This document shows positions 474 to 2,282 of a DNA stretch of 2,594 bases, piece by piece; within the stretch, counting starts at the first letter, position 1, and each line of letters starts with the position of its first letter. The translations under genes and the position numbers were made by a program. The stretch comes from Dictyostelium discoideum. Lineage: Eukaryota. A model generated the notes under the pieces. That model had not been told where the DNA came from. It saw nothing but the letters and a program-made list of their open reading frames with translations, and did not search any database. The stretch lies in the NCBI GenBank assembly GCA_000004695.1, contig CH709149.1:1-2594 (forward strand), in the 5' to 3' direction.

Positions 474-502
474 TGAGACCTCCCTTTCCGGAAGTTCCGT
501 TT

Positions 503-508
503 AAAAAA
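503..508 (-). terminator. Pol III oligo-T terminator (T6) immediately 3' of the tRNA-like gene.
   Basis: The plus strand is aaaaaa at 503-508, so the minus strand is TTTTTT, directly after the predicted discriminator base at 509. Confidence 0.5.
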
Positions 509-581
509 TGTTGCATATGGAAATCGAACCCGTGACCTCTTACATTCTAAGCTATCTATCTACCATATGAGCTAAATAAGC
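509..581 (-). tRNA. tRNA-like Pol III gene, probably a decayed tRNA pseudogene, with a possible AAT (Ile) anticodon loop. The acceptor stem is not complementary.
   Basis: Minus-strand sequence: GCTTATTTAGCTCATATGGTAGATAGATAGCTTAGAATGTAAGAGGTCACGGGTTCGATTTCCATATGCAACA. The A box TAGCTCATATGGTAGA is at 559-574 and the B box GGTTCGATTTCC at 519-530. There are 53 nt from the 5' end to the T loop, as in a class-I tRNA, and a T6 run follows. However, the 5' arm GCTTATT does not pair with the 3' arm ATGCAAC, the T stem ACGGG/TCCAT is weak, and the D region carries a tagatagatag slippage. The overall pattern resembles tRNA-Ile(AAT) with many C->T and G->A changes. Confidence 0.5.
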
Positions 582-621: not shown

Positions 622-690
622 AAAAAAAGTGAGTAAGAAAAAAAACATCAACAACAACAACATTTTTCATATAAAAAAAAGACATAAAAA
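622..690 (+). repeat. Direct repeat copy 1 (~70 bp) with a (CAA)5 core and an A-rich tail.
   Basis: aaaaaaagtgagtaagaaaaaaaacatcaacaacaacaacatttttcatataaaaaaaagacataaaaataaaataaaa matches 797-880 at ~85% identity. Confidence 0.8.
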
Positions 691-796
691 TAAAATAAAA
701 TACACAAAGAGTAAATCATTGGCCTTCTTTATTTTAATGTAATTAATTTTTTCTTTTTTTTTGAAAACTTTGCGAAGGCAAATTGAAAAAAAAAAG

Positions 797-872
797 AAAA
801 AAATCTCAGTAAGAAAAAAACATCAACAACAACAACATTTTTATTGATATTTCATTTTCATATAAAAAAAGA

Positions 873-903
<31 letters not shown>
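797..903 (+). repeat. Direct repeat copy 2 (~75 bp plus a 16-bp internal insertion), ending in a pure A29 homopolymer (875-903).
   Basis: aaaaaaatctcagtaagaaaaaaacatcaacaacaacaacattttt[attgatatttcatttt]catataaaaaaagactaaaa... followed by 29 consecutive A residues. This looks like a retroposon oligo(A) tail. Confidence 0.8.
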
Positions 904-906
<3 letters not shown>

Positions 907-1257
907 ACCTCACTTATCAGAAATTTCAAATAATAAATGTCAGAGAGCATTTATCTCGATTGGTCAATAAACATTAAAATATTAACTAAGAAAAAGAATT
1001 CACCATATATATTAAATCCAACTTTGAAAAAAATTAAATCTCTTACGTATCTAGTAATACAATAGTAATCAGTTGCAAATCAGGATGGACAGGAGTTCAC
1101 ACCGACAGCATTCAAGTAGTTAGGGATGCTAGTAATTCATTCAAACAAACAAAAATAAAAAATTCCACAATTATTAGTATTACATCAAAATTTCCAGTTG
1201 ATCACAAAGAATATCTCACAACAATGTCCACTGAGTTAAAAAATAAATTCATCAAAT

Positions 1258-1737
1258 GTGAACCAGGAAATCAACCATTCTACCTTTACCCATATCGGAG
1301 TAAACACTGAATGGGAACCAGAATCTAAAATAAAAGCACTTAACGACTTCACTGTTATAAATATCACTAAATGGAAAATTTTAAAATATAAAGAATCTAT
1401 GGCCAAAGAAGAAAAAACCAATGAAAAACAACAAAAAACAAATAATAGTGACAATACATCTTTCACCTCTCCACCCAAAGATAAAGATGAACCATCACTC
1501 AATTTAAGTTCTCAATTCGAAGTTAGCATTTCTATGCTTAATACTGACTTTATCTTTGATGACTCTTCACCAATACCAAATAAATTATTAGAGCTGATTT
1601 CACCTGAACCAATTGTTTTTAGCATCAGAGAATTGGATTCTCCAACTAAAGATAACATACTAAATGAACTACTTTATCAACCAGAACAATCAATTTATGT
1701 TCCTCCTCCTCCCCTCCACCCCCTCCACCACAATTAA
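1258..1737 (+). CDS. ORF1-like hypothetical protein, Asn/Lys/Pro-rich. It probably needs a frameshift to join the frame-3 ORF at 1668-1978; the only in-frame ATG is at ~1399.
   Basis: This ORF comes from the six-frame track (it is GTG-initiated in the track). It ends in a poly-Pro/C-rich tract, tcctcctcctcccctccaccccctccacc. Third codon positions are A/T-biased, as in Dictyostelium coding DNA. No zinc knuckle or other motif was recognised. Confidence 0.35.
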   Translation: MNQEINHSTFTHIGVNTEWEPESKIKALNDFTVINITKWKILKYKESMAKEEKTNEKQQKTNNSDNTSFTSPPKDKDEPSLNLSSQFEVSISMLNTDFIFDDSSPIPNKLLELISPEPIVFSIRELDSPTKDNILNELLYQPEQSIYVPPPPLHPLHHN

Positions 1738-1978
1738 ACAAACCAAGCAGACCAAAATTCAACATTAAACAAAAAAAGATTAAAACGATCGAAGAAAATA
1801 TAGAGGAACACCTCAAAGATACTTTAAATAACTCATCAGAAACAATATCAACAAAGAGAAAATACCAGGAGGAGCCAAATCAAGAGAATGATCTCGAACA
1901 AATATCCACAATTATGAACAACAATTTACAAAAGATTAATAAAAACTTATCAATCTCACTAACTAATGAACACAAGTA
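1668..1978 (+). CDS. Likely continuation (C-terminal part) of ORF1 in frame 3, reached by a -1/+2 shift within the Pro-codon tract.
   Basis: Frame 3 is open from 1668 to the TAA at 1976-1978 (…PPPPPPQLNKPSRPKFNIKQKKIKTIEENIEEHLKDTLNNSSETISTKRKYQEEPNQENDLEQISTIMNNNLQKINKNLSISLTNEHK*). It overlaps the frame-1 ORF by 70 nt and has no ATG until 1912. Confidence 0.35.
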
Positions 1979-2148
1979 AGATAGCAATATGGAACGCCCA
2001 AGGACACAGCAAAGAAAAATGCACCTTTAAAGCCAATTTAAAGCAAATACAATTTAAATTTGCTTTAAATTGTGTAAAAGTCACTCACACTAATCTTCAA
2101 TCCATTGTCACATTTGTTCAATCTTTAATCAAACAGTCCAATCTTTAA
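1966..2148 (+). pseudogene. ORF2 remnant: the N-terminal 60 codons of an apurinic/apyrimidinic-endonuclease-like (APE) domain, after which the rest of ORF2 is deleted or decayed.
   Basis: MNTSKIAIWNAQGHSKEKCTFKANLKQIQFKFALNCVKVTHTNLQS...* The WN-x-x-G motif and a '..C.K.THtNL' block at the same spacing (~27 aa) as L1-type 'NINGL ... CIQETHL' support an APE start. The catalytic Glu position is Val. A stop follows at 2146-2148, and the remainder of the window is AT-rich non-coding. Confidence 0.45.
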
Positions 2149-2282
2149 AGTAATGTTTTTTAATATGAAGGATAGAAAGAGTGAAAGACTAATATCATAA
2201 AAGTAAACATACTTAAAAGAGATAATTAAAAGTAAGGGCGTTATGAGAACTAAACCGAAAATCAGAATTTTATTATTTTTTT

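Follow-up and report, generated by a model that had tools for sequence, protein, structure and literature searches.

Between about positions 629 and 2165 of the DNA analysed here (a stretch of 2,594 nucleotides from Dictyostelium discoideum; hereafter ‘the window’) lies what is very probably a non-LTR (LINE-like) retrotransposon copy of the TRE5 group, both dead and non-autonomous, some 50 bp upstream of a degenerate tRNA gene. A sequence-only reading had taken 1258-2148 to be one decayed, bicistronic, dictyostelid TRE5-type non-LTR retroelement with its ORF1 split at a C-tract; our analysis supports that identification but not its limits, as the element covers about 629-2165. In the layout we propose, a duplicated A-like 5' UTR and a B-like leader would precede ORF1, which would in turn be followed by 13 codons of ORF2 plus the ORF2 C-terminal end, and then by a truncated 3' end; the 5' end would face the degenerate tRNA gene, the canonical position for TRE5. 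Elements of this kind have two ORFs, with APE-RT encoded in ORF2 (PMC5006619, PMC5391098), and the group is recognised here by an ORF2 that combines an APE endonuclease with a reverse transcriptase and a zinc finger. Seen as a whole, the window presents a ‘nest’ in which pieces of transposons surround a degenerate tRNA gene, as is typical of Dictyostelium.

The closest relatives are three Logan contigs (L002-L004), to which the window is 90-97% identical and which encode the AX4 protein DDB_G0294178 exactly. L001 and L006 are more diverged. By blastn, window positions 661-1436 match 5694-6513 of L001 at 81% identity and 1425-2003 match the same locus at 78.5%; against L006, 608-1395 aligns with 5606-6468 at 75%, and identities over 608-1395 and 1534-2004 lie at 69-75%. 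The ORF2 of L001 starts MNTINIAIWNVQG and contains a reverse transcriptase (RVT_1, E 3.5e-32), along with a weak Exo_endo_phos match (E 5.7e-4, which does not reach the Pfam threshold), and in L006 ORF1 is likewise followed by an ORF2 with a precomputed RVT_1 hit. A protein search with the N-terminus of ORF2 returned one Dictyostelium protein only, and no named TRE protein.

The 5' UTR (629-936, plus strand), as delimited by direct repeats and by blastn to L001 and L006, contains an A-module-like unit in tandem duplicate (about 608/629-783 and 784-905), after which a B-module-like leader continues to the ATG of ORF1. Direct repeats D3-D7 and D9 recur within it at a spacing of 175-176 nt, and the same A-module-like duplication is found in L001 (5645-5945). 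A long run of A (874-903) closes the second A-module-like unit.

On the minus strand, 48-53 bp from the 5' end of this element, sits the presumed integration target, a tRNA-like remnant (510-581) with a B-box-like GGTTCGA motif, which aligns in register with the tRNA-Lys of L001 and the tRNA-Glu of L006. Neither ARAGORN nor Rfam called a tRNA in the window, even when 400-640 was scanned with Rfam at permissive settings, and we therefore infer the identity of the remnant from motif and register. In L001, an element beginning near 5646 faces a tRNA-Lys(UUU) gene on the opposite strand whose 5' end is at 5595; in L006, the element's start near 5425 faces the 5' end, at 5382, of a tRNA-Glu(UUC) gene, again on the opposite strand. 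Both elements thus lie about 43-50 bp upstream of a tRNA gene, ‘head to head’ with it, which falls inside a published range of 34-90 bp; TRE5 integration has been described as occurring upstream of tRNA genes at ~50 bp (34-95 bp), the element turning its 5' end towards the tRNA (PMC5006619, PMC5391098). A 57-nt tandem repeat (D2; 425-481 and 482-538, minus strand), the two units of which are 77% identical, carries a B-box-like GGTTCGATTCC in each unit, and L007 contains a 76%-identical paralogue of this B-box repeat region (5801-6110), in which the B-box units number three and are not followed by a TRE5.

The ORF1 remnant (937-1979, plus strand) was traced by tblastn with the repaired (fused) ORF1 of L006, 462 aa in length, together with a four-way DNA alignment and its list of indels. 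These place the true start at the ATG at 937, and not at 1258 as had been suggested, with the N-terminus reading MSESIYLDW... as against MSESNLISDW... in a related Dictyostelium protein of 439 aa (P0001). From there the coding path runs in frame 1 (937-949), frame 3 (~990-1268), frame 1 (1273-1737) and frame 3 again (1707-1979), set against an ORF1 of about 460 aa in intact relatives. Upstream of the C-rich tract it has lost 7 nt after 949, is interrupted by an in-frame TAA at 1035-1037 and has gained 1 nt near 1268; deletions that keep the frame have removed a further 198 nt (after ~1429), 18 nt (after ~1532) and 21 nt (after ~1748). With at least three other disabling lesions, the frameshift at the C-tract is only one of several, and repair of the tract alone would leave ORF1 broken.

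Searched against 5.8 billion protein clusters, a conceptual fusion of the two frames has no more than four relatives, all of them Dictyostelium ‘hypothetical proteins’ with the character of ORF1: P0001; P0002, which is DDB_G0294178 / Q54AV6 of AX4 (254 aa); P0003, from D. cf. discoideum (144 aa); and P0004 (358 aa). The BLASTP-type check that had been suggested for the fused frame therefore matched Dictyostelium ORF1-like proteins only, and no cellular, non-TE protein. Homologues were found for both frames (E 6e-82 to 1e-23), whilst Pfam recognised no domain in the ORF1 of the window or in the 60-aa ORF that follows it, and an exact-protein look-up of three window ORFs for further copies gave no match.

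Purifying selection is evident on both sides of the tract, each in its own frame, with dN/dS of 0.06-0.19 upstream and 0.09-0.30 downstream; shifted-frame controls on the same alignments gave values of about 0.4-5.7, mostly near 1 or above. Selection on both halves of ORF1 implies that the master lineages translated both.

Three-frame translation bore out the overlap of two frames at the C-rich tract TCCTCCTCCTCCCCTCCACCCCCTCCACC (1701-1729, plus strand). Frame 1, with a stop upstream at 1237-1239, is open from 1258 to the TAA at 1735-1737, and frame 3 is open over 1668-1976, following a TGA at 1665-1667. The arithmetic of a fused product of ~240 aa is also correct, in that a net gain of 1 nt (or loss of 2 nt) in the tract joins 1258-1979 into 240 codons. 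The tract encodes poly-proline and is 72% C, compared with a GC content of 31% for ORF1; it is built of CCT/CCA repeats and C-runs, C4 and C5 amongst them, and falls a net 1 nt short of being in frame.

We compared the tract in five copies, namely the window, L001, L002, L005 and L006. None of the five is in frame from ...QSIY to ...KPKFN, and every one is broken within about 60 nt of the tract, each in its own manner. The window stands at net -1. L002 stands at +1, with a tract 2 nt longer than that of the window, and L005 is also at +1; L006 is at -1, within a C5 run, this being its sole ORF1 lesion across 462 codons. In L001 the tract itself, SIYVPPPPPPLPPQLN, reads in one frame, and an 8-nt insertion lies immediately 3' of it. 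The probability that L006 and L001 should each have one of their two small lesions in this 60-nt zone by chance is ~6e-4, and the breaks cluster in a non-random way. No copy examined has the whole SIYV...KPKF stretch in one continuous ORF1; the in-frame tract of L001, taken with the dN/dS values, nevertheless points to an ancestor that was in frame. Two protein models, P0003 and P0001, might have been thought to pass through the tract in frame, but were rejected as such, since their predicted introns skip the frameshift and the genomic DNA (L005 and L001, respectively) is out of frame.

As the breaks fall at different sites and run in opposite directions, they point to an indel ‘hot spot’ and not programmed frameshifting. 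In the window, a small indel (net -1 nt) within the (CCT)n/C-run proline tract has very probably split ORF1 into two halves that are out of register, and slippage during replication or reverse transcription would be the simplest cause of such a hot spot. In practical terms, any attempt to build a consensus for the TRE5 family of the window, or to test it for activity, will need to check the C-rich proline tract of ORF1.

The best-surviving alternative for the window itself, though an unlikely one, is that the frameshift arose in sequencing or assembly, as an error at a C homopolymer, the real ORF1 being in frame at this point. In its favour are the C4 and C5 runs within the tract, and single-nucleotide discrepancies in C-runs do occur among the related loci taken from long assemblies; L001, L005 and L006 all belong to assemblies of Mb scale, where errors in homopolymers may occur, and C-run errors are possible in L005, L006 and the window alike. 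Against this, three lesions would keep even a repaired ORF1 defective (the insertion near 1268, the TAA at 1035 and the 7-nt deletion after 949), and the paralogous tract is identical in L002-L004, three independent Logan assemblies, where it is likewise out of frame. Assembly error as the source of all the lesions in the relatives was rejected, because those in ORF2 comprise a deletion of ~75 codons and a duplication of roughly 7 nt.

Less probable still is that the change of frame is programmed, with ribosomes slipping by -1 or +1 on tRNA-Pro at the C-runs, possibly aided by stalling on poly-proline, such that functional elements would make both a short and a long ORF1 protein. We attach the same very low probability to a broader form, in which the tract acts as a functional recoding or slippage site at the level of the ribosome or of the polymerase/RT, the elements then making a shortened ORF1 protein and, where slippage occurred, the complete one. 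If true, a recoding or slippage site would explain why all copies are out of frame there whilst both halves are under selection; it would accord with the break lying within about 60 nt of the tract in five of five copies, with the purifying selection on either side of it and with an L006 ORF1 that is otherwise intact over 462 codons, and the CCCCC run in the window and in L006 would in principle allow re-pairing of tRNA-Pro in the -1 frame. However, the direction varies, being -1 in the window, L006 and L001 and +1 in L002 and L005. Moreover, in L006 the shift would be needed before a TAA inside the tract, and in L001, where the tract itself is in frame, after two stops 3' of it, so that the stretches within which the two would have to shift are mutually exclusive. 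There is no conserved slippery heptamer and no conserved start codon, and the other, genuine lesions in the copies mark them as decayed. A programmed -1 frameshift at a conserved site was accordingly rejected, and the differences of sign, together with the non-overlapping shift stretches of L006 and L001, make programmed frameshifting unlikely.

That 1258-1737, 1668-1979 and 1966-2148 might be unrelated chance ORFs or fragments of cellular genes deserves next to no credence: the DNA is AT-rich (GC 16-38% in 200-nt windows), 21/1000 mononucleotide shuffles of 900-2200 yield an ORF of 104 codons or more, and neither ORF1 nor the 60-aa ORF has a Pfam domain, but the idea is refuted by colinear nucleotide and protein homology over 661-2003 to RT-encoding elements beside tRNA genes, and by the frame-specific purifying selection on both halves.

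Returning to the decayed TRE5-type element, the junction between its two ORFs is an overlap of 14 nt (1966-1979, plus strand), from the ATG at 1966-1968 to the TAA at 1977-1979. It had been given as 13 nt, with the stop of frame 3 at 1976-1978; those three bases read GTA, the stop lies one base further on, and the overlap with the ATG at 1966 is hence 14 nt. In L001, L006 and L005, whose identity to the window is 69-80% and among which a second species-level lineage is represented, the junction reads AAAATGAAC, such that ORF1 ends K-TGA and overlaps the start of ORF2 by 4 nt (ATGA). The window and L002 instead have AC-TAATGAAC, which is 1 nt shorter; this 1-nt deletion before the ATG means that the TGA is no longer read in the frame of ORF1, and ORF1 consequently extends to the TAA at 1977-1979. 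Since ATGA is found in diverged relatives and the deletion is common to the window and L002, the 14-nt overlap is derived and not ancestral. The earlier claim of an overlapping ORF1/ORF2 junction therefore holds insofar as the overlap is real, but its present extent is secondary to a 1-nt deletion, and the overlap in the relatives is one of 4 nt.

Junctions at which the stop of ORF1 and the start of ORF2 overlap are found in other non-LTR retrotransposons, the UAAUG of Bombyx SART1 being an example. The ATGA of L001, L006 and L005 resembles these in that stop and start share bases, and is compatible with termination-reinitiation; the window differs, its stop being placed 10 nt further downstream through the 1-nt deletion. 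In working relatives, ORF1 would end ...SISLTK-TGA with the stop overlapping the ATG of ORF2, an arrangement suited to termination-reinitiation, and to judge from the sequence the two ORFs may be translationally coupled at the ATGA. Both ORFs of the window are defective, and no coupling function is thus to be expected there. Two overlapping ORFs have already been recorded for TRE5-A (PMC5633606).

The frame that opens at the ATG at 1966-1968 (frame 1) comprises 60 codons and ends at 2148. It had been read as ORF2, and it is derived from ORF2, but with its 13 N-terminal codons, MNTSKIAIWNAQG, where the endonuclease domain begins, joined in frame to the C-terminal end of the protein (HSKE...). 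Homology to the 5' end of ORF2 in L001 and L006 stops at about 2003. Beyond this, window positions 2005-2043 (CACAGCAAAGAAAA..., encoding HSKE...) match the 3' end of the L001 ORF2 (LQLHSKENHTLKSYLNL) at 81.6% and in the same frame, the bases after 2004 aligning with the last roughly 30 codons of that ORF. The fusion point therefore lies at about 2004/2005, with ~47 C-terminal codons kept, and the 60-codon ORF (1966-2148, plus strand) is an ORF2 lacking about 1000 internal codons. Pfam found no reverse transcriptase in this remnant.

The same breakpoint is present in L002-L004, although L002 continues for only 34 nt beyond the junction. As these contigs have other indels and a different 5' truncation from the window yet share the junction, the deletion predates both copies. 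By analogy with known elements we suggest that a deletion derivative was mobilised in trans; the common breakpoint could alternatively reflect segmental duplication rather than retrotransposition.

The last bases of the element (2149-2165, plus strand) abut an LTR fragment, with LTR-like sequence matching from 2166. A poly(A) tail, a further criterion of the TRE5 group, is absent at 2165 because the element is truncated there; the elements of L001 and L006 both end in poly(A). L001 also contains two TRE5 3'-end fragments arranged head to head (13130-13370), of which the plus-strand fragment comprises the C-terminus of ORF2 (WNSPLHIVEIPSNLNKYVTSLNTLFTPQL*) followed by poly(A), and the minus-strand fragment starts GACACAGCAAAG, at the same point as the breakpoint of the ORF2 deletion in the window, a coincidence that might mark a site prone to recombination or truncation. 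A conserved sequence of ~100 nt (…AATAAAATGAGATTTATCTCAAGAAGAAGCAA…TTCCATTCAAAAAAA) occurs after TRE5 poly(A) in L006 (10626-10810) and in L001 (13366-13470 and 13550-13640), and may be a C-module; the C-module is said to have been acquired via 3' transduction (PMC4559204).

With regard to subfamily, membership of TRE5-A was rejected on three counts. Rep-190 and Rep-109Q are primers specific for the ORF1 of endogenous TRE5-A (PMC5391098 Table S1), and neither found a site in L001, L002, L006 or the window when 4 mismatches were allowed (5 for the window, L001 and L002); Rep-190 does match a TRE5-A-like element in L007, with 3 mismatches. BLASTP found no similarity between the ORF1 of the window family and that of the TRE5-A-like element in L007. 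Finally, a repeat search found no second (3') copy of the B-like leader in the window, whereas TRE5-A has the layout AB-ORF1/ORF2-BC. The absence of the TRE5-A primer sites, of ORF1 similarity and of a 3' B-module together indicate that the element is not TRE5-A.

This leaves TRE5-B and the poorly defined TRE5-C as comparators, to which the likeness rests on the exclusion of TRE5-A and on length. In common with both, the family is non-LTR, has a lineage-specific ORF1 and an APE/RT ORF2, and is placed ~50 bp upstream of tRNA genes, its 5' end towards the gene; the lack of detectable similarity to the TRE5-A-like ORF1 is also in line with the ORF1 proteins of TRE5-A and TRE5-B being only 25% identical (PMC3159450). 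In favour of TRE5-B, the L001 element measures about 5.9-6.0 kb without its LTR-like insertion, close to the length of 5971 bp for Dd_TRE5-B (PMC5006619 Table 1). The 3' C-module, on the other hand, is absent in TRE5-B and present in TRE5-C (PMC3159450), and the C-module-like sequence after the poly(A) of the L006-type relative would fit TRE5-C and not TRE5-B. The window copy is unlike either in its deletion of ORF2, a kind of derivative that has been described for TRE5-A (PMC3159450).

That derivative, TRE5-A.2, is an ORF2-deleted TRE5-A (AB-ORF1-BC) that is mobilised in trans (PMC3159450, PMC5633606). The window element resembles it in retaining the 5' modules, ORF1 and the 3' end while having lost almost the whole of ORF2, and in the existence of at least two diverged copies with the same breakpoint, as expected of a propagated derivative; it differs in belonging to a non-A lineage and in having no 3' B-module repeat. 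An ORF2-deleted derivative present in more than one copy has thus arisen in a lineage other than TRE5-A as well. The object in the window is an ORF2-deleted, decayed copy of an already known class of Dictyostelium retrotransposon, in which the recurrent break at the tract is mildly unusual.

These findings bear on gene annotation, as the stretch should be masked as TRE5-derived and not given gene models for hypothetical proteins. DDB_G0294178 of AX4 is a truncated TRE5 ORF1, and the ‘hypothetical protein’ models in GCA_054859355.1 and GCA_054859205.1 (P0001, P0003, P0004 and a model containing an integrase) are transposon remnants. In the models at L001 6001-7784, L005 6001-6879, L006 6001-7206 and L007 1483-6714, predicted introns bridge frameshifts or insertions. 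DDB_G0294178 and several models of the newer assemblies are, in short, annotation artefacts, some of them with invented introns.

The remainder of the ‘nest’ is made up of LTR-retrotransposon pieces. On the minus strand, 1-429 holds an open frame with an RT_RNaseH domain (Pfam PF17917, E 3.7e-26) that adjoins the B-box repeats, and this represents part of a Ty3/gypsy LTR retrotransposon of broadly DGLT-A/Skipper type. At the other end, also on the minus strand, 2166-2594 comprises the 3' end of an LTR retrotransposon, with the C-terminus of an integrase (...DDDELDLSLQIKTTRSGRKVTPKRL*) and a truncated Ty3/gypsy LTR that is about 300 nt long and shares 88% identity with L007. Given that this LTR lacks its terminal ~85 nt (by comparison with L001 and L007) and that the TRE5 element lacks its poly(A), the boundary at 2165/2166 is a double truncation. 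Related LTR pieces occur in L007 (6636-7042 and 11883-12166) and in L001, where the same LTR-like piece (6768-7131) is inserted within the ORF1 of the TRE5 element.
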